A stretch of 10,280 nt of DNA, taken from the IMG/VR virus record IMGVR_UViG_2690316323_000007; one strand, 5' to 3'. The translations under genes and the position numbers were made by a program. Below the pieces are notes generated by a model. That model saw only the letters and a program-made list of their open reading frames with translations, had not been told where the DNA came from and made no database searches. Within the stretch, counting starts at the first letter, position 1. Each line of letters begins with the position of its first letter. Origin of the DNA: a virus (taxonomy: Duplodnaviria; Heunggongvirae; Uroviricota; Caudoviricetes). Positions 1-9,141 of the stretch are shown piece by piece.

Positions 1-1251
1 GTGCTTACCGATACAAAATTAAAAAACCTCAAGCCGCAGGACAAACTGTACAAGGTCTCCGATCGTGACGGGCTGTATGTAGCTGTGCTTACGTCAGGCA
101 CGGTCTCGTTTCGCTATGACTACCGTATCAACGGTCGCCGCGAAACACTGGTAATCGGGCAGTATGGGCGTGACGGTATCAGCCTGGCAGAAGCGCGGGA
201 AGAACTGATTGCTGCAAAGAAGCTGCTTAAAGCAGGCCAGTCGCCGGCTGCGGCTAAACGTGACGGTATCAAAAAGATTCGTGGTGCCGAGACATTTGCG
301 GTACATACCGACAGTTATATGAAACACGTCATCCTGGCTGAAAGTACCCGCGCAATGAAACAGGCGGTGATCGACCGTGACATACTTCCGGTTCTTGGCA
401 ATAAAATGATGGCTGAAATTACCACATCGATGGTTCGTGATTTGTGTGACCGGATTGTCGAACGCGGTGGCCGGGCAACAGCAGTGCAGGCCAGGGAGAT
501 CATCAGTAGCGTATACCGTCACGCCAATGACCGTGGTCATGGTTTGTTTAATCCTGCGGCTGACATTAAACCTTCGTCTATCGCCATATTTAAACCACGA
601 GAGCGAACACTGACACCAGAAGAAATTGGCCTGTTCTTCCGCACGCTGGATGCCATTGGTGCTATGGGCACTATGAAAATGGCTTTAAAGCTGGTGCTTA
701 TCACTATGGTTCGTAAAGGCGAATTCACCAATGCAACGTGGGATGAAATAGATTTTAAAAAATGGACATGGACAATTCCTTCAGACCGCATGAAGGGAAG
801 CCGGACGCACGTTATTTACCTGCCTAAACAGGCACAGGATATATTGGTTGGGTTGCAGATGTGCGCTGGTGGAAGTGAATATCTGGTTCCTGGTCGTTAC
901 AATTTCCGGAAGCCATTATCTAATGCCGCGCTGAACTCTCTGATCGACAGAACGGTGAAAATAATAAATGAAGATGGTGAGCATATTCAGGACTTCACCG
1001 TACACGATATGCGCCGTACAGCAAGTACGTTGTTGCATGAGGCTGGTTATCCTTCAGACTGGATTGAAAAGGCTCTGGCACATGAGCAGAAAGGTGTGCG
1101 CGCCGTATATAACAAAGCGGAATACGCCAGACAGCGCGCCTACATGTTGCAGCAGTGGGCCGATATGATTGATTCCTGGATTGACGGGGAGCATACGGAT
1201 CTGATTCCGTTCTCCCCGTCGAAGTTTGAGAAATGGATGGCGGGGGAATAA
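1..1251 (+). CDS. Tyrosine recombinase / phage integrase, P4-like family (416 aa, GTG start at window position 1; upstream context not visible)
   Basis: N-terminal arm-type DNA-binding region (MLTDTKLKNLKP...DGLYVAV...FRYDYRINGRRETLVIG) and C-terminal catalytic region with H-x-x-R (HDMRRTASTLL) and a candidate catalytic Tyr (VRAVYNKAEY). Stop TAA at 1249-1251. Because the ORF starts at base 1, the true start could lie further upstream. Confidence 0.9.
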   Translation: MLTDTKLKNLKPQDKLYKVSDRDGLYVAVLTSGTVSFRYDYRINGRRETLVIGQYGRDGISLAEAREELIAAKKLLKAGQSPAAAKRDGIKKIRGAETFAVHTDSYMKHVILAESTRAMKQAVIDRDILPVLGNKMMAEITTSMVRDLCDRIVERGGRATAVQAREIISSVYRHANDRGHGLFNPAADIKPSSIAIFKPRERTLTPEEIGLFFRTLDAIGAMGTMKMALKLVLITMVRKGEFTNATWDEIDFKKWTWTIPSDRMKGSRTHVIYLPKQAQDILVGLQMCAGGSEYLVPGRYNFRKPLSNAALNSLIDRTVKIINEDGEHIQDFTVHDMRRTASTLLHEAGYPSDWIEKALAHEQKGVRAVYNKAEYARQRAYMLQQWADMIDSWIDGEHTDLIPFSPSKFEKWMAGE

Positions 1252-1282: not shown

Positions 1283-1975
1283 TCAGAAGAACTCTGCTTT
1301 GTCGTTGATGTACTCCGCGTGCGTCTGGATATCACGCAGGCATTTGCTCACACCAACGATGTAGCAGAACATGGTGGTCAGCTCCGCCGCCGCGCCCGAT
1401 ACGTCGTGCCCGTCTTCCTGTAACTGGTTCAGCAGATTCATCAGCAGTGAGTTCTCCGTCAGGCCGAGAACACCAGACGGAGAATGAATCAGGCTACGGT
1501 AGCCGGGCTTCAGCGGGGCGCTGTAGGTTTTGTTCTCTATCTTCATTGCCTGCATCACTGCTGATGCTGTGGCGTTGGCTACCTGGTCGGCAACCATCTT
1601 TATGCGTTCTTCCTGCGGGAGCGAGTTTTTAATGTAACTTCCGGTGCGGCGGATCTGAGGAAGAACCTCACCTGTAACCCATTCAAGAAATCTGAATGCT
1701 CTCGTTCCCTCAGTCATTGCCTCTTTGCAACGCAGAATAAGGATGTAGAGACCTGATTCTGAAACGATGGATAGTTCTTGTATTCCACCAGGGGTCTGTA
1801 TTGAATACAGCCCCTTTTTGTTCCAGCCTTTTTTATCAAGTTTTCTCGCTTGTGTAACATCAATATTCAAAGCATTGCACACATCTTTGGTGACAAACCA
1901 AGGTTCTCCGTCAATCATGAACATACGGATCTGGCAGGATGACTCAAAGGAAAAGATGGAAGGTTTGGTATTCAT
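1283..1975 (-). CDS. Bro-N domain protein (antirepressor-like) with a C-terminal domain that is paralogous to the 85-aa protein at 3359..3616
   Basis: Six-frame ORF 1283..2020 trimmed to the internal ATG (1975..1973 on minus), which has an RBS (AAGGTGA) about 6 nt upstream. The N-terminal half matches the Bro-N pattern (FSFESSCQIRMFMIDGEPWFVTKDVCNALNI...GLYILILRCKEAMTEGTRAFRFLEWVTGEVLPQIRRTG). The C-terminal ~70 aa align with the small protein at 3359..3616. Confidence 0.85.
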   Translation of the reverse strand: MNTKPSIFSFESSCQIRMFMIDGEPWFVTKDVCNALNIDVTQARKLDKKGWNKKGLYSIQTPGGIQELSIVSESGLYILILRCKEAMTEGTRAFRFLEWVTGEVLPQIRRTGSYIKNSLPQEERIKMVADQVANATASAVMQAMKIENKTYSAPLKPGYRSLIHSPSGVLGLTENSLLMNLLNQLQEDGHDVSGAAAELTTMFCYIVGVSKCLRDIQTHAEYINDKAEFF

Positions 1976-2001
1976 GGCGATCACCTTTGTAGTTAGGTTA
2001 A

Positions 2002-2034
2002 TCACCACCGCTGAGACCAATCAGATGGTGGTGA
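2002..2034. promoter_or_regulatory. Inverted repeat TCACCACC-N17-GGTGGTGA in the Bro-N gene upstream region; candidate operator
   Basis: Perfect 8-bp arms at 2002-2009 and 2027-2034, located about 27-60 bp upstream of the Bro-N start codon on the minus strand. Function is inferred from position only. Confidence 0.3.
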
Positions 2035-2162
2035 ACTGTGCAGAGTTGGTCTTACCGGCTACAAAGGAACCCGGCGCACCTTTCGGTGCCCCCACACAGC
2101 CCACCATAGAATAGGTGCGCTTTACACATAAAAAAACCGCTTATGCGGCATATGTGCCTCTG

Positions 2163-2216
2163 TAGTAATCCGGGAGACCAATCCCGGCACTGGATTTTGC
2201 CAGTGCCCGATTACTA
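2163..2216. other. Nested stem-loop element in the divergent intergenic region (candidate RNA structure or protein-binding site)
   Basis: Inner stem CCGGCACTGG (2184-2193) / CCAGTGCC(G) (2200-2208) with loop ATTTTG; outer arms TAGTAATC (2163-2170) / GATTACTA (2209-2216). The 9-mer GAGACCAAT occurs both at 2175-2183 inside this element and at 2013-2021. No flanking U-tract, so it is not a classical terminator. Confidence 0.35.
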
Positions 2217-2335
2217 TGGCACAAGAGGAGTGCGATGTAAATTTACCGCAAAGGTAATAATAAATGCATAACTCACGTTATTTCAACCCTATGTGGTTTG
2301 ATTGATCCCATTTCAGAAAATACCTGCCTATTTTT

Positions 2336-2365
2336 TTGCCAGTATGCGTATACTTTCGATAGAAT
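2336..2365 (+). promoter_or_regulatory. Candidate sigma70 promoter for the two-gene operon (TTGCCA-18 nt-TAGAAT)
   Basis: -35-like TTGCCA at 2336-2341 and -10-like TAGAAT at 2360-2365 with an 18-nt spacer, about 55 bp upstream of the ATG at 2419. Confidence 0.45.
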
Positions 2366-2418
2366 GTTTACCCTAGAGGTAGTTGGGGGGGCCCGTGAAC
2401 ACGAAGAGAGCTACAGTA

Positions 2419-2838
2419 ATGCAGCATTTGAGGAAATCAGAAAAAAATAAAGACCATGAAATATTGAGTAAGGCCATTGTTCGGGCTTCCAATAATACTG
2501 TTATACCTCATGCTGAAGAGACTGGACAGAAATTTCTTATTCGGTATTTCACTGAAAATAGTGCAGTTGAGGAGATTTTAAAACATCAGGGAGGGGAATT
2601 TAAATGTGGAAAACTGGCAGATTATGTTCGTCGTGAAACGTCTGAACAAGAAGTATATTATGCTGATATTAATCATAAGTCAGGTGTGAAAATTGTAATA
2701 GGCTATTACACAACTCCCAAAAATGTTATGCATGAGGTCCCAAAGATGTCCGTCGAGAAATCTCATGCAATCTCGCGCAGGATGTTTGCACGCACTGCCG
2801 AAGATATGGCTCAGGAGCTCTACGACGATGCTGAATAA
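2419..2838 (+). CDS. Hypothetical protein (139 aa), first gene of a translationally coupled pair; candidate antitoxin/partner of the downstream gene
   Basis: ORF 2383..2838; start assigned to ATG 2419, which has an RBS-like AAGAGAG about 9 nt upstream (alternatives: GTG 2395, TTG 2383). No family recognised by eye; acidic C-terminus (ELYDDAE). Its stop TAA (2836-2838) overlaps the downstream start inside the string ATGCTGAATAA. Confidence 0.7.
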   Translation: MQHLRKSEKNKDHEILSKAIVRASNNTVIPHAEETGQKFLIRYFTENSAVEEILKHQGGEFKCGKLADYVRRETSEQEVYYADINHKSGVKIVIGYYTTPKNVMHEVPKMSVEKSHAISRRMFARTAEDMAQELYDDAE

Positions 2839-3334
2839 ATTCCAGGGGTTGGTTCACCCTGGAATTTTTGGGAAGGACCCTGAGCTAATACCTATCAAAA
2901 ACGCGTTCATAGATCACTGGCGCTACGGTCATCATAAGGATTTCGGAAAGGACACTCTGTTTCGGGATCCACCGAAAGAGATGCTGGAATATCACATACG
3001 CCACGTTCACGTAAACATCGGAAACTATACTGACAAGTTTGGTGAGAGCGGTACGGAACAATGCTGGAAAAACTGGGCATCCGGGAAGAAAGACAAGACC
3101 ACCAACAAGCATAAAAAAATACCAACCAGTGATGTGTATGTGATTTATCTTGTAACGTCTGAGCGACATGCGTTTCTTCTGGATTACTGGGATGAGCCAG
3201 CACACAAAAAAGTAGAAATTGACGAACAAAAACAAAAACTTCTTGTCGAGTGTGACAGAATTTTGCGGCTGAAAAATTTAGAATCCATGCCGCGCGATGC
3301 AAGTTTGTGGGACCCGGAATTTTACGACTGTTAA
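2828..3334 (+). CDS. Hypothetical protein (168 aa), second gene of the pair; weak resemblance to YafO-family type II toxins (tentative)
   Basis: ORF 2723..3334 trimmed to ATG 2828, which overlaps the upstream stop by 11 nt. Recalled YafO-like features: FGKD/FGRD-type motifs (IFGKDPE, DFGKDTLFRDPP), HIRHVHVNIGN, and a C-terminal block VYVIYLVTSERHAFLLDYWDEPAHKK. Confidence refers to the CDS call; the family assignment alone is about 0.4. Confidence 0.7.
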   Translation: MLNKFQGLVHPGIFGKDPELIPIKNAFIDHWRYGHHKDFGKDTLFRDPPKEMLEYHIRHVHVNIGNYTDKFGESGTEQCWKNWASGKKDKTTNKHKKIPTSDVYVIYLVTSERHAFLLDYWDEPAHKKVEIDEQKQKLLVECDRILRLKNLESMPRDASLWDPEFYDC

Positions 3335-3335
3335 T

Positions 3336-3360
3336 GGCCGCTCTTGCGGCCTTTAAATTT
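3336..3360 (+). terminator. Candidate rho-independent terminator after the two-gene operon (GGCCGC-tctt-GCGGCC followed by TTTAAATTT)
   Basis: Perfect 6-bp GC stem (3336-3341 / 3346-3351) with a 4-nt loop and a T-rich tail, sitting between the convergent stop codons at 3334 and 3359. Confidence 0.45.
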
Positions 3361-3616
3361 ACCGGGTTTGTTTTCGTAATTGTTCGGCACAATAGTCGAG
3401 ATGTGTTTGCAGATCCCGCATAGACATCTGTGAGCTGGTGACGTAGTTAATCAGTGCAGTCAGTTCGGCAAGTGGGCCATCGACATTAAATCCATCCTTA
3501 TCGAGATCCCGGAGTAATTTCATCAAGTGCGATCCCTCCACCAGTGACCTGACGCCTCCCGGCGTGTGAATCCTTTCGGTAAATCCGTCTTCCAGTGGAT
3601 AGTGATACTGCTGCAT
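3359..3616 (-). CDS. Small protein (85 aa), stand-alone paralog of the Bro-N protein C-terminal domain; predicted SOS-regulated
   Basis: ORF 3359..3634 trimmed to the ATG at 3616 (MQQYHYP...), which has an RBS GGAGAAG about 7 nt upstream; the ATG at 3634 lies inside that RBS. Shares about 40% identity by eye with residues ~160-231 of the 1283..1975 protein (IH[ST]P.GV..L.E.S.LM.LL..L..DG..V.G..AELT...Y......RD[IL]QTH). A LexA box sits 20 bp upstream. Confidence 0.7.
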   Translation of the reverse strand: MQQYHYPLEDGFTERIHTPGGVRSLVEGSHLMKLLRDLDKDGFNVDGPLAELTALINYVTSSQMSMRDLQTHLDYCAEQLRKQTR

Positions 3617-3635
3617 CTTATCTTCTCCATGCAAT

Positions 3636-3655
3636 AACTGTATATTTATACAGTA
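3636..3655. promoter_or_regulatory. LexA (SOS) box: AACTGTATATTTATACAGTA
   Basis: Matches the E. coli LexA consensus TACTGTATATATATACAGTA at 18 of 20 positions, with both CTGT and ACAG half-sites intact and 8-bp spacing. Lies immediately upstream of the minus-strand small gene (start 3616) and within the divergent region shared with the tail fiber gene. Confidence 0.75.
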
Positions 3656-3691: not shown

Positions 3692-3758
3692 ATTACCTGA
3701 AAGGTAATATCTGTTCGTATTCACACCCTTTCTATCCATATGTGGTTTTTCAGGTAAT
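3692..3758. promoter_or_regulatory. Cluster of GGTAAT half-sites upstream of the tail fiber gene (palindrome ATTACC-tgaaa-GGTAAT plus a further AGGTAATA copy)
   Basis: Palindrome at 3692-3708; AGGTAATA repeated at 3702-3709 and 3752-3759; TACCTGAAA (3694-3702) is the reverse complement of TTTCAGGTA (3748-3756). No good sigma70 -35/-10 pair is apparent for the tail fiber gene. Confidence 0.35.
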
Positions 3759-3811: not shown

Positions 3812-6787
3812 ATGACGGTCTCAACCGAAGTTGACCACAACGAATACACAGGTAACGGCGTTACGACATCATTTCCGTATACCTTTAGGGTTTTCAAGGA
3901 ATCTGATCTGGCAGTACAGGTGGTTGACCTTGACGAAAATATCGCTGTGCTGGCTCTTGATACTGATTACACTGTCACTGGGGCTGGTGGATATAATGGC
4001 GGTAATGTAATTCTGTCGAAGGCGTTAGCTAACGGTTATCAGATTTCTATATCACGAGAGCTACCGGTTACGCAGGAAACTGATCTGCGAAATCAGGGAA
4101 AGTTTTTCGCTGAGGTGCATGAAGACGCGTTAGATAAGCTGACGATGCTGATACAGCAAGTCCGCAGTTGGTTTAGCCTGGCGCTGCGCAAACCATCATT
4201 TGTGGCAAACTATTACGATGCTTTGAATAATTACATCCGCAATTTGCGCGATCCTTCCAAGCCTCAAGATGCAGCTACAAAGAATTATGTTGATAATATT
4301 GTTAATGTGAATATTAACAGGACATTACGGGTTCCAGATAATTTTATTGAACCACTTCCTCCAGTTCATTTACTGGAAGAAACTGTCATTGGTATCGTCA
4401 ATGGTAAACCTATAGGTGTACCTGTGCCTTCTGGCAGTGCCGCAGATGTTCTTCTGCAATTATCTAGCGCAGGAGAAGGAAAAGGAGATGCATTAATTGG
4501 TGTAAGGCAGCCATTTGCCGGGGCTGTAACTATAACTCAGCATGAAAACAATGCTCTTTTCTTAAATGTAAAACAATTCGGAGCAATTGGGGATGGGAAA
4601 TATCATCCATTATCTGAGAGGTTTTCTTCAATTTCTGAAGCAAAATCCTTATATCCTTTTGTTGACTCATTATCTCAGTCAATAGACTGGGCCGCGTGGC
4701 AAGCTGCCATTAACACAGGAAAGGTTATTTATGGTACTGATAATGCGTATGTAATAACGGATACGTTAACACCTGTTTCTGGTGGTGGGATAATTGGTCT
4801 TGGTGTGGGCAAATGGGTCTCTGGATATACTGCAACATTTGCTCCTGATATTACCACAGGGACCACATTCCTGATGTACGGTGTAGGAAATAAAAAATAT
4901 ACTGTAGATTGTGTTTCTAATATGGATGTTAGTGGTGGTGTGGTTTCTAATCCATCTTCCGAAGACCCGTATACAACAACGGCACCTGCGTCATCATATG
5001 ATTTATTGGATTTTACTAACGGTGATGCTAATGGGGCTACAAGAGCCACGCTTAAACCATTCTCTGCCGCAATATTGATGCCAGAGACAGGATGTGTTCG
5101 CCTTGAGAACTTTCGTATTGTTCCATATTTCAATGGGCTGGATGGTTATAAAGACATTGCAAATACCGGTCTTGGCGATGAGTGGGATGTAGGTATTTGG
5201 TCACGTGCGTCTTTTGGCAATGAATACCGCAATTTGCAGGTGGTTGGATACTGGCGCAAGACGGCACTTTTAAAAACGAACATTCCTGTATCTGGCACGC
5301 TGGCCGCTCAGGGCGAGGATGAAAACTATTATCACTGTAGATTCCAGGGATTCAAGGGTGTTTCGATCCGCGCCCATGATGTATTCCGAATTACAGCGGT
5401 AACGTCCAGCACTATCGAAATCCCATGGTCATCAAGCCACACCTTCGAAACGTCCGGGGTTTTAAGATCGGGAGGCAGGAATTTCACTTATTCAGGATTA
5501 TCCGTATCCGGTGATAAGTTAGTATTTACTGGAGTGTCTAACGCTTCTGAGGCAACAGTAGGTTCTACTATACGGCGAAATGACATAGATAACTTTGGTA
5601 TGGCGGGAACGCAATTTTTCGATTGCTACATTACCAGCCTGTATCACCACACACATCTGCTTGCCACATCGCAATACCTGTCTCAGCCATTCAGCCGGCC
5701 ATCAGAGTGTATGGAGGTTTCAGGGGAACCAGTTCGCGGTGTACAGGTACATGCAGGAACCATTCAGGGATGGGATGATGTTCTTATTCATCTGCATGAC
5801 TGTGGAAATATGAACTTTTACAGTACATATTTCGAAAGCCAGCCAGCATATGTAACTATAAATGGTGGTAATGCTATTGGTTATGGAGCACGTATGATAG
5901 CTTCCAGGCAATCAACAAGCTCATTACCATATGCAGCAGGGAATACTCGAGTGCTTAGAATGGTCGGGTGCTCTGAAGGCAATGGCGTTGACTGGGGTCC
6001 TGTATTTAACAACTATACAGGAGGAAGATATAATTCTGGAGACGGTGTATTTAACCCCCGCGATGCATTTGTAGACCATAAATCTCTTCCTGAGCAGTCA
6101 GGAGGTGAGTCAAGACTCGTATCACAAAAAGGAAATGCCAGAGTAGTATGTGGTGTTGGTAAAACTGTACTGCTTGGACCAACTTCAGGAGATTGTAATT
6201 TACAGAGTAATACTGGAAGTTTAAATATTAGAAGTGGGATAAGAGTAAGAATCGGTCACGCTGATGGAACAGACTGGTGGTTGGCAGATGCTAATAAAAT
6301 AGCTCCTGTTGATGATAATGTTAAAGCTATTGGACAGCCATCAAACAGATGCTCTGTTATCTATGCAGGAACCGGGTCAATCAATACGTCAGATGAAACT
6401 CTTAAAACAAGATATGATATTCTTAATGCAGAGCGTGATGCCGCTATTGAAATAAAGTCAGTCATCTATAAATTTAAATTTAATGACTCAATTAATCACA
6501 AAGGAATTGAGTCGTCCAGGTATCATTTTGGCGTTGGCGCTCAAACCGTAGGGGATATTCTTAGAAAGCATGGTTTAAACCCTGAGCAATATGCTTTTTG
6601 GTGTTACGATGAATGGCCTGACGTATGGGATGAAGAGGTGATAACTGAAGAGAGCACAGATCCTGATACAGGTGAGAAAATTTATTCTCAATATAAAACA
6701 GGAGATATGATTCTTGTAAAAAAAGCAGGAGGACGCTACGGAATTCGTTATGACGAATTAGCCATGTTTATATTAATGTCAATGTAA
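3812..6787 (+). CDS. Tail fiber / tailspike protein (991 aa) with T7 gp17-like N-terminal adaptor, central pectate-lyase-like beta-helix (putative depolymerase) and C-terminal intramolecular chaperone (peptidase S74-like) domain
   Basis: ATG 3812 with GGAG 7 nt upstream. N-terminus (YTGNGVTTSFPYTFRVFKESDLAVQVVD...DYTVTG) resembles podovirus tail fiber N-terminal domains. Central region has the beta-helix start motif (NVKQFGAIGDGK...DWAAWQAAINTGK). C-terminal ~130 aa (SDETLKTRYDILNAERDAAIEIKSVIYKF...YHFGVGAQTVGDILRKHGL) resembles the self-cleaving chaperone of endosialidase-type tailspikes. Confidence 0.85.
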   Translation: MTVSTEVDHNEYTGNGVTTSFPYTFRVFKESDLAVQVVDLDENIAVLALDTDYTVTGAGGYNGGNVILSKALANGYQISISRELPVTQETDLRNQGKFFAEVHEDALDKLTMLIQQVRSWFSLALRKPSFVANYYDALNNYIRNLRDPSKPQDAATKNYVDNIVNVNINRTLRVPDNFIEPLPPVHLLEETVIGIVNGKPIGVPVPSGSAADVLLQLSSAGEGKGDALIGVRQPFAGAVTITQHENNALFLNVKQFGAIGDGKYHPLSERFSSISEAKSLYPFVDSLSQSIDWAAWQAAINTGKVIYGTDNAYVITDTLTPVSGGGIIGLGVGKWVSGYTATFAPDITTGTTFLMYGVGNKKYTVDCVSNMDVSGGVVSNPSSEDPYTTTAPASSYDLLDFTNGDANGATRATLKPFSAAILMPETGCVRLENFRIVPYFNGLDGYKDIANTGLGDEWDVGIWSRASFGNEYRNLQVVGYWRKTALLKTNIPVSGTLAAQGEDENYYHCRFQGFKGVSIRAHDVFRITAVTSSTIEIPWSSSHTFETSGVLRSGGRNFTYSGLSVSGDKLVFTGVSNASEATVGSTIRRNDIDNFGMAGTQFFDCYITSLYHHTHLLATSQYLSQPFSRPSECMEVSGEPVRGVQVHAGTIQGWDDVLIHLHDCGNMNFYSTYFESQPAYVTINGGNAIGYGARMIASRQSTSSLPYAAGNTRVLRMVGCSEGNGVDWGPVFNNYTGGRYNSGDGVFNPRDAFVDHKSLPEQSGGESRLVSQKGNARVVCGVGKTVLLGPTSGDCNLQSNTGSLNIRSGIRVRIGHADGTDWWLADANKIAPVDDNVKAIGQPSNRCSVIYAGTGSINTSDETLKTRYDILNAERDAAIEIKSVIYKFKFNDSINHKGIESSRYHFGVGAQTVGDILRKHGLNPEQYAFWCYDEWPDVWDEEVITEESTDPDTGEKIYSQYKTGDMILVKKAGGRYGIRYDELAMFILMSM

Positions 6788-7136: not shown

Positions 7137-7193
7137 ATCATGCGTAATGCTTTACTGTTCAGGAGGTAGTTATGCATATAAACGGTGGAAAAC

Positions 7194-7598
7194 ATGTCAG
7201 CTCAACTAACCAGTGAAACTTTAAATCAGTGGCTTAGCATGAGTTCTTTGGCGGCAGTGATAGCAGGAGTTCCTCCTGAGGTTGCTTTGGGGTCTTTGGC
7301 TGGGGCGGTGATTTTTGTTACCTCTGCGGTAGAGTATCCCATTCGTCGTCGCGTGCTCTTGTCGATGCTTAGCTTTCTCTGCGGACTTCTATTCTACAAA
7401 CCAGCAGCATCAATTCTTATCGGCATAGCCAGCCTGATCCCTACAATCACACAGGATTCTTTCGAGAAAGGGATTGTTTTCTCTGCCGGTGCATTTGTGT
7501 CAGCAATCGTCGCTGTGCGAATTGGGATCTGGCTCTATCACCGTTCCGATAATCCACGCGAGTTAATTCCGGGGAGAAAAGACGATGGTAACTCATGA
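7194..7598 (+). CDS. Holin-like membrane protein (134 aa from ATG 7194; 137 aa if GTG 7185 is used), about 4 predicted transmembrane segments
   Basis: Hydrophobic stretches LAAVIAGVPPEVALGSLAGAVIFV, VLLSMLSFLCGLLFY, ASILIGIASLIPTI and IVFSAGAFVSAIVAVRIGIWLY, with a charged C-terminus. First gene of an overlapping operon with the endolysin. Two in-frame candidate starts (GTG 7185, ATG 7194). Confidence 0.65.
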   Translation: MSAQLTSETLNQWLSMSSLAAVIAGVPPEVALGSLAGAVIFVTSAVEYPIRRRVLLSMLSFLCGLLFYKPAASILIGIASLIPTITQDSFEKGIVFSAGAFVSAIVAVRIGIWLYHRSDNPRELIPGRKDDGNS

Positions 7599-9072: not shown

Positions 9073-9109
9073 CACTCAATTAGTTATGATTGTCGTAAAT
9101 AATTGAGTG
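9073..9109. repeat. 10-bp inverted repeat CACTCAATTA-N17-TAATTGAGTG in the junction region between the lysis cassette and the flanking genes
   Basis: Perfect arms at 9073-9082 and 9100-9109. Could be a protein-binding site or part of the island boundary; no function can be assigned from sequence alone. Confidence 0.35.
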
Positions 9110-9141
9110 GGAATGATTTGAACCCTGTACTATGAATGAAC

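Follow-up and report, generated by a model that had tools for sequence, protein, structure and literature searches.

The region between positions 1283 and 3655 of the viral DNA IMGVR_UViG_2690316323_000007 (Caudoviricetes; 10,280 nucleotides, a stretch that we call the window) is probably an antirepressor, or secondary immunity, region, in which two paralogous antirepressors would be built on one repressor-binding fold and each wired to a different signal. One is a small stand-alone protein related to the antirepressor Ant of Salmonella phage SPC32H, whose gene is preceded by a LexA box; the other carries an Ant-like domain behind a Bro-N domain, and its gene lies downstream of an RNA cassette of the C4 and IsrK types. 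The element that holds both genes is, as we read its gene content, a ~9-kb remnant of a decayed prophage of the phiV10/epsilon15 kind (Uetakevirus). An earlier note, made from the letters of this DNA alone, had given the positions of the two open reading frames (ORFs) correctly and had seen that the proteins, of 230 and 85 amino acids (aa), share a C-terminal domain at about 40% identity; the two RNA genes and the operator-like palindromes within 1283-3655 had escaped it. The antirepressor features, with distances in nucleotides (nt), are the following.

1283..1975, minus strand: gene of the predicted modular antirepressor (230 aa), with N-terminal Bro-N domain, helical linker and C-terminal Ant-like domain (the Bro-N protein)
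1286..1537, minus strand: Ant-like C-terminal domain (aa 147-230), paralog of the small Ant
3359..3616, minus strand: ant, small stand-alone antirepressor (85 aa), ortholog of SPC32H Ant
3636-3655, read on the minus strand: LexA box TACTGTATAAATATACAGTT, a consensus match that ends 19 nt before the ant ATG and overlaps the likely -10 element

Our BLASTP comparison aligned aa 149-222 of the Bro-N protein with aa 2-75 of the 85-aa protein without a gap, with 32 of 74 positions identical (43%, E=1e-20). When two family profiles, one made from an alignment of the small proteins and one from an alignment of the large ones, were compared by hhalign, the large protein was matched at aa 147-226 over 80 columns with a probability of 99.6% (E=5.1e-24); both E-values lie far below 0.01, the threshold that the earlier note had set for such an alignment. 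The C-terminus of the Bro-N protein also matches PDB 5D50 chain E (E=8e-14) and PHROG 450 (3e-37), meaning that the homology of aa ~147-230 to Ant is significant by BLASTP, hhalign, 5D50_E and PHROG 450. The paralog pair, again ~40% identical, is also present in EC.W1-9, ZX5, phiV10, Tyrion and an E. coli prophage, and every related element that carries the large gene has the pair.

When 1.84 billion representative proteins were searched exhaustively with a profile, the Ant domain turned up in only 63 clusters, where it either stands alone (about 85-95 aa) or forms the C-terminus of proteins of 150-319 aa, whose N-terminal partners are Bro-N, AntA, pRha or ORF6N. The fused forms needed this exhaustive search; a word-indexed protein search with the small Ant gave only close stand-alone relatives. 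By these comparisons the SPC32H Ant fold is what many enterobacterial 'BRO-N domain-containing proteins' carry as their C-terminal module, which is hence probably their repressor-binding part. Pfam-A and NCBIfam hold no model for the Ant domain, and PHROG 450 and PHROG 15539 are both described as of 'unknown function'.

The small protein matches chain E of PDB 5D50, 'Anti-repressor protein', over its whole length (aa 2-84 against 3-85, E=1.4e-46) as well as PHROG 450 (7e-48), and tblastn gave it 86.7% identity, across 83 aligned residues, with the gene that GenBank annotates as ant in Salmonella phages SPC32H and SPC32N. RefSeq names its gene 'hypothetical protein', despite the solved structure (5D50) of a close relative. 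We assign it to the SPC32H-type Ant family (Kim & Ryu 2013 J Virol; Kim et al. 2016 PNAS; PDB 5D50), as part of a system that is incomplete without rep. The two proteins are of nearly equal length (85 aa in the window, 86 in SPC32H), and in both genomes ant lies beside a divergent tailspike gene, with a LexA box and a flanking palindrome. Unlike the window, SPC32H has no second, fused copy and neither C4 nor IsrK within the 5.2 kb around ant; the window, for its part, has lost rep.

The near-consensus SOS box that the earlier note had placed before the small gene proved to be real. It fits the consensus TACTGTATATATATACAGTA at 18 of 20 positions, with CTGT-N8-ACAG free of mismatches, and is the only good LexA box that we found in the window. 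In an alignment it coincides base for base with the box of SPC32H and SPC32N, and a CTGT-N8-ACAG box stands 19-20 nt before the ant ATG in 75 of the 77 loci that have both genes and enough upstream sequence. Over the ~200 base pairs (bp) upstream of ant, the sole difference between SPC32H and SPC32N is a change from ACAG to AAAG within this box. Kim and Ryu (2013) reportedly found that the two genomes differ by only two nucleotides and that the mutated LexA site causes constitutive Ant expression in SPC32N. We infer that the small gene of the window is under LexA/SOS control. Ant is grouped with the antirepressors produced after LexA self-cleavage in a passage of a review (PMC7380047), and SPC32H Ant is described, in a secondary citation, as a tetramer that dissociates the Rep tetramer into dimers.

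The Bro-N protein is best described as a modular antirepressor, composed of a swappable N-terminal domain and an Ant domain. Its Bro-N domain (PF02498) covers aa 16-106 (1.7e-13; 51.4 bits against a cut-off of 25.6), and the protein matches PHROG 130 'anti-repressor Ant' over its full length (8e-51); the ANT/KilAC domain (PF03374) gave no Pfam match at E<=0.01. The Bro-N part alone was matched in 1059 phage records, only 18 of which cover at least 80% of the protein. E. coli DinD, an SOS-inducible protein that the earlier note had been reminded of, does share the Bro-N domain (Pfam, 32.4 bits), but the likeness ends there: DinD has no Ant domain, its similarity to the Bro-N protein is not significant (E=0.13), and the LexA box of the window stands before the small gene instead. 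The nearest studied relative is ORF4 of phage vB_EcoP_ZX5 (ZX5), which lies at the same genome position and is 80% identical, with residues 105-230 identical save one; the ZX5 att core was also found in the window. ZX5 ORF4 has been termed an anti-repressor, and its overexpression cut the prophage titre from 1e9 to 1e6, i.e. lysogens became 1000-fold fewer (PMC9782041). That paper treats only the Bro-N protein as an antirepressor; the adjacent ant homolog of ZX5 is annotated 'hypothetical protein', and a term search of the paper found no mention of LexA, SPC32H or antisense control (PMC9782041).

Bro-N is the N-terminal domain in the window, ZX5, EC21Z-151 and Tyrion, while in phiv142-3 an AntA domain takes its place and the C-terminal module, from YSAPLKPGY on, is practically identical. 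The near-identical C-terminal domains of ZX5, phiV10 and phiv142-3 agree with the identical repressor reported for these three phages (PMC9782041). A similar arrangement is seen in the AriS-like regulators of Listeria and other Firmicutes phages, where AntA/AntB, Bro-N or pRha stands in turn before a constant C-terminal effector domain; there that domain is ANT/KilAC and inhibits the SOS response (PMC9043618), whereas in the window it is the SPC32H-Ant fold. The phiV10 record labels the Bro-N homolog 'putative anti-immunity protein', and a frameshift near 19688 of that record splits the gene within the Ant-like domain (around codons 181-185) into the annotated p23 (194 aa) and p22 (29 aa); this is either a pseudogene or a sequencing error, and the gene is intact in other relatives. 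At eight IMG/VR loci the Bro-N antirepressor is 99-100% identical to that of the window, but the 2.5 kb upstream of it show no small ant on its strand, which reflects either a larger cargo, of the kind described below, or loss of ant.

Between the Bro-N gene and its putative promoter lie two RNA genes and the sites with which they may pair, listed here from the promoter downward.

2257..2286, minus strand: promoter-like site of the IsrK-C4-antirepressor transcript (TTGAAA, 18 nt, TATTAT; 10/12 in a consensus scan)
2130..2206, minus strand: IsrK-like RNA, two hairpins and an intrinsic terminator (Rfam RF01394, 74.7 bits, gathering threshold 50)
2175-2181, minus strand: b1 (UUGGUCU), in the loop of the second IsrK hairpin, complement of C4 AGACCAA
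2136-2149, minus strand: intrinsic terminator of IsrK, with T-run
2024..2111, minus strand: C4-type antisense RNA (Rfam RF01695, full-length match, 78.6 bits, gathering threshold 45)
2014..2020, minus strand: target b2 (UUGGUCU), just downstream of C4, complement of the single-stranded C4 junction AGACCAA (C4 nt 60-66)
1984..1992, minus strand: target a2 (CUACAAAGG), overlapping the Shine-Dalgarno sequence, 8 nt before the Bro-N ATG

The loop of the second C4 hairpin (nt 45-53, CCUUUGUAG) is an exact 9-nt complement of a2. Both RNAs also occur, above the Rfam gathering thresholds, in phiV10, EC.W1-9, the EC21Z-151 prophage and Enterobacter phage Tyrion, where C4 again precedes the fused gene, and the position of the promoter-like site is kept in a four-locus alignment. 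To follow the pairing segments we compared 86 loci, namely the window, five annotated relatives and 80 IMG/VR loci (of 487 relatives found). Among them the C4 loop segment a' and its target a2 co-vary in four types (CCTTTGTAG/CTACAAAGG, CCTTTTAG/CTAAAAGG, CCACTTAG/CTAAGTGG and CCTGTGAC/GTCACAGG), and the segments b'/b1/b2 in three (AGACCAA/TTGGTCT, ACGCCAA/TTGGCGT and GTGCAAA/TTTGCAC). Because the segments change in compensatory fashion, this is strong evidence that the pairings of C4 with its targets are functional, and it suggests that several RNA-immunity specificities exist among these loci. C4 likely blocks translation of the Bro-N gene by occluding its ribosome-binding site. The energy of the C4-target duplexes discriminated only weakly, 2% and 14% of shuffled sequences reaching the observed values, because the calculation ignores intramolecular structure; the case for pairing rests on the covariation.

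C4 is overlapped by a 28-codon ORF (2107..2021, minus strand), whose counterparts bear the names 'ash family protein' in the ZX5 annotation and 'similar to SF0880' in that of phiV10. Among relatives the frame of this ORF is disrupted by indels (1-2 nt) within the C4 loop, which makes its conservation as a protein improbable. The idea that LexA controls the Bro-N gene was considered and rejected: the gene has no box, and the CTGT-N8-ACAG with one mismatch at 2084-2099 is GC-rich and lies inside C4.

The cassette resembles two known systems in different respects. The immI region of phages P1 and P7 reportedly consists of the c4 antisense RNA, icd and ant, an account that goes back to Citron and Schuster in 1990 and Heinrich et al. 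in 1995. The c4 RNAs of P1 and P7 differ in RNA-immunity specificity. As in immI, a C4-family RNA lies on the antirepressor transcript of the window, from which it would be cut, and has two loops that pair with repeated targets, loop and target fall into specificity classes, and an operator-like site stands at the operon promoter. Unlike immI, the window has no icd and no ANT/KilAC domain, a2 covers the ribosome-binding site of the antirepressor itself, and the upstream target region fits the IsrK model better than the c4-a1b1 model. In one Gifsy prophage a small antirepressor under SOS control occurs together with another that is linked to IsrK; the small Ant itself had no Gifsy match in the phage collection. 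In Gifsy-1 transcription from the isrK promoter reads through the terminator of IsrK and so reaches anrP, a gene of antirepressor type; a processed RNA that is stable (STnc1160) lies downstream (PMC4825925). The order of an IsrK RNA with a leaky terminator, a processed RNA and an antirepressor-like gene is thus common to Gifsy-1 and the window, and orf45 of Gifsy-1 is translated at a place analogous to that of the 28-codon ORF. The LexA-controlled Gifsy antirepressors are credited to Lemire et al. 2011 in a passage of the review mentioned above (PMC7380047).

A palindrome of the form TTACC-N5-GGTAA recurs around both antirepressor genes.

2243..2257: palindrome TTACCGCAAAGGTAA, candidate Rep operator, which abuts the -10 element and covers the +1 region of the IsrK promoter
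3693..3707: palindrome TTACCTGAAAGGTAA, candidate Rep operator, between ant and the divergent tailspike gene
2368-2382: near-palindrome TTACCCTAGAGGTAG, one mismatch, after the promoter-like site of the cargo genes
7318-7332: near-palindrome TTACCTCTGCGGTAG, one mismatch, inside the first holin-like gene (7185..7598)

These four sites in the window (two exact, two with one mismatch) compare with 0.31 expected. In phiV10 we counted 14 where 0.65 would be expected; 12 are intergenic, and two of these separate the repressor gene from the divergent cro-like gene. The early region of SPC32H has 11 against 0.18 expected, three of which lie between rep and its divergent neighbour; one more stands upstream of the SPC32H ant. 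The repressor gene product of phiV10, phiV10p40, is a homolog of Rep (5D50_A, E=4e-42; 42% identity to SPC32H Rep). Upstream of ant the half-sites are invariant and the spacer variable in the window, phiV10, SPC32H and Tyrion. The palindrome stands upstream of ant at each of the 77 loci and, 200-330 nt before the antirepressor ATG, upstream of IsrK at 82 of 86. We propose that it is probably the Rep operator. Because the palindrome of the rep-cro region recurs at the +1 of IsrK and before ant, repression by Rep probably covers at least the IsrK-C4-antirepressor transcript. The sites of phiV10 and SPC32H are mostly intergenic and often form pairs spaced by 48-62 bp; they stand on either side of rep, in the rep-cro interval and ahead of int and the holin operon. 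Such a pattern would suit a repressor bound as a tetramer; two close sites (87 and 105) lie within the small terminase gene of phiV10.

Taken together, the preferred reading of two differently wired antirepressors would work as follows. LexA would occupy the box over the ant promoter, and upon DNA damage its self-cleavage would allow Ant to be made; the Ant tetramer would then split the Rep tetramer into dimers, as in SPC32H, and induce the prophage. The Bro-N gene would be transcribed from its own promoter through the IsrK-like RNA, the terminator and the C4 antisense RNA. Processed C4 would pair by its two loops with b2 and a2, and since a2 covers the ribosome-binding site, translation would be shut off in a cell that already holds the element, an RNA immunity of the P1/P7 immI type. 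Rep would probably repress at least this IsrK-C4-antirepressor unit, and the fused C-terminal domain of the Bro-N protein would bind Rep. The suggestion of the earlier note that one interaction domain is deployed in two regulatory contexts is in this sense borne out, the domain being the Ant fold (5D50) and the contexts LexA/SOS for ant and the C4/IsrK cassette for the Bro-N gene.

Several observations weigh against this reading of the locus. The fused C-terminal domain is only about 40% identical to Ant, and in the AlphaFold2 monomer of the Bro-N protein its pLDDT is below 50, as against 70-85 for the Bro-N domain. The ZX5 ORF4 experiment used a glutathione S-transferase (GST) fusion at very high expression (PMC9782041). 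The promoters are known only as consensus matches, and the palindrome on the ant side lies ~37 bp beyond the LexA box, where it may serve the divergent tailspike promoter. The analogy with immI is imperfect as well: the c4-a1b1 model of Rfam scores 39.9 bits at 2167..2219, below its gathering threshold of 46.7; no a1 complementary to a' was found, the loop of the first IsrK hairpin (GCAAAAUC) showing no covariation with a' over the 86 loci; and there is no icd-like coupled ORF, nor any between C4 and the antirepressor ATG. Finally, IsrK of Gifsy-1 activates anrP translation, via orf45 coupling (PMC4825925), so that the net sign of the RNA control in the window may be positive or negative.

The alternative that survives best concerns the target of the fused paralog. 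This protein might act on repressors other than the element's own Rep, as an anti-immunity device against heteroimmune prophages like P22 Ant, with the small Ant serving self-induction. We regard this as unlikely, though worth keeping in view: the paralogs are only ~40% identical and yet each is conserved within its own lineage, the phiV10 label of 'putative anti-immunity protein' points the same way, antirepressor cross-talk between Salmonella prophages is documented in a passage of a review (PMC7380047), and C4-type control would silence the gene in a lysogen and let it fire on infection. On the other hand, overexpression of ZX5 ORF4 hit the lysogeny of ZX5 itself, and no second Rep type was identified in this analysis. 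Such a division of labour is compatible with the preferred reading and does not exclude it.

The low pLDDT of the C-terminal domain could also be taken as a sign that the shared domain is an oligomerisation scaffold only, which does not touch Rep, so that Bro-N, AntA or pRha would do the real work of binding DNA or a host target. A poor monomer model is what one expects of an obligate oligomer, Ant is a tetramer in the literature, so that the fold does oligomerise, and in the Listeria AriS-like proteins the two domains have separate activities (PMC9043618). Nevertheless, the stand-alone Ant inactivates Rep with no other domain attached, and among phages reported to have the same Rep the C-terminal module is constant while the N-terminal domain is swapped even between families, a pattern expected if the C-terminal module carries the element-specific recognition. 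A pure scaffold is therefore, in our view, distinctly improbable, and we retain the reading in which the shared domain would recognise Rep.

What the pair could do in the window depends on what is left of the prophage. The integrase (1..1251) shares 98% identity with its phiV10 counterpart, whose gene sits after the lysis genes; here the int stop codon (1249-1251) lies about 30 bp from that of the Bro-N gene, and homology to intact phages restarts at 1260, immediately beyond the latter stop codon. What the element lacks compared with phiV10 is the stretch with rep, the genes for replication and almost every virion gene. With the early region, which holds rep in phiV10, the window element is also without a cognate Rep (5D50 chain A family). 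The other end of the element is marked by one further feature.

9102-9118: att core (attR) ATTGAGTGGGAATGATT, the published att core (PMC9782041), next to yfgI, which is followed by yfgH

ZX5 integrates at the 3' end of guaA, and its att core has been published (PMC9782041). Among contigs that encode identical proteins, the junction of guaA, int and the Bro-N gene is present in an E. coli draft assembly (GCA_000397685.1) and in one metagenome contig, and a third, short contig has int beside the Bro-N gene. The int/Bro-N junction was found in none of 5426 complete E. coli genomes, and an exact scan of one genome per species gave no match. The tailspike gene (3812..6787, 991 aa) encodes a C-terminal endosialidase chaperone domain (Peptidase_S74) and an endosialidase-like segment; it is the main variable block among otherwise near-identical prophages, relatives having GH28-like, SGNH hydrolase or 'eliminase' versions.

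Both antirepressor genes, the LexA box, the RNAs and the palindromes are intact in this remnant, while the presumed target Rep is absent; another, related phage would have to supply the Rep on which they could act. Because the two proteins share an oligomerising, Rep-binding fold, they may form mixed tetramers or compete for one Rep surface. We offer, as a speculation to which we give little weight, that such an interplay integrates the SOS signal (LexA) with RNA immunity (C4/IsrK), and that in remnants without Rep the pair forms an SOS-triggered device acting in trans. If true, the pair could serve the host, by keeping incoming or co-resident Uetakeviruses from lysogeny or by forcing them into induction.

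The two antirepressor genes flank, as the earlier note had observed, a pair of genes on the plus strand, which that note took for a candidate toxin operon.

2248..3358, plus strand: cargo (moron) insertion relative to phiV10, in place of 41 bp of phiV10
2336-2365: promoter-like site of the cargo genes
2419..2838, plus strand: cargo gene 1, 139 aa
2828..3334, plus strand: cargo gene 2, 168 aa
3336-3351: hairpin of the cargo genes

We take these two genes to be cargo that varies at a hot spot of insertion. Measured from the stop codon of ant to the ATG of the large gene, the spacing falls into four groups over the 77 loci: ~320 nt in 43 loci (with no ORF of at least 60 aa), ~1150 in 24, ~1390 in six (the type of the window) and 1470-1560 in four. 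Four different gene contents were seen at the site, in every case on the opposite strand; in the EC21Z-151 prophage it is a single unrelated gene of 242 aa, and phiV10, ZX5 and phiv142-3 lack the operon of the window. Since the cargo varies while both antirepressor genes stay, the bracketing indicates an insertion hot spot and not a functional unit. The cargo products had no Pfam match even at E<=10 and no match to NCBIfam or PADLOC profiles; the latter two collections gave no match for any of the four proteins, antirepressors included.

One could still imagine that the antirepressor-like genes and the operon form one functional module, in which the shared domain regulates or neutralises toxin-like products. 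Besides the physical bracketing, such a module would be favoured by the RefSeq label 'YafO family toxin' for cargo gene 2, which goes with only a weak match to K-12 YafO (31% over 54 aa, E=0.002), and by the near-palindrome TTACCCTAGAGGTAG just after the cargo promoter-like site, a hint that Rep may control the cargo too. We consider it very improbable and reject it, for the cargo is variable among relatives: the operon is absent from phiV10, ZX5, phiv142-3 and the 43 loci that have both antirepressor genes with only the short spacing, others have unrelated cargo in its place, it lies on the opposite strand, and its proteins match no toxin-antitoxin or defence profile. A functional tie to the operon, to which the earlier note had linked the two genes, is likewise not supported. 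That the similarity of the two antirepressors is due to chance or composition, or that one of the ORFs is not a real gene, can be practically dismissed, given E-values of 1e-20 (pairwise) and 5e-24 (profile-profile), a near-identical ortholog of the small protein with a solved structure, and close homologs of both proteins (147 and 970 database matches).

Both kinds of antirepressor were already known, and each has a close studied relative or family (SPC32H Ant and ZX5 ORF4, with C4 and IsrK in Rfam); only the link between the two is new. In the accessible literature we found no statement that these phages have two paralogous antirepressors with the solved Ant fold in common, and none that places the large one in a C4/IsrK cassette whose specificity classes co-vary. 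The paralogy is a useful annotation that refines a known principle and changes none. It gives a concrete function to a domain left blank in the profile libraries (no Pfam model, and 'unknown function' for PHROG 450), and it joins two literatures that name different antirepressors: for Salmonella SPC32H the small Ant, for ZX5 and phiV10 of E. coli the Bro-N protein. For annotators it carries a warning that the gene pair between the antirepressors is interchangeable cargo, outside the switch. For the phages themselves it would mean that those of the phiV10 kind carry a P1-like RNA immunity cassette with several specificity classes.

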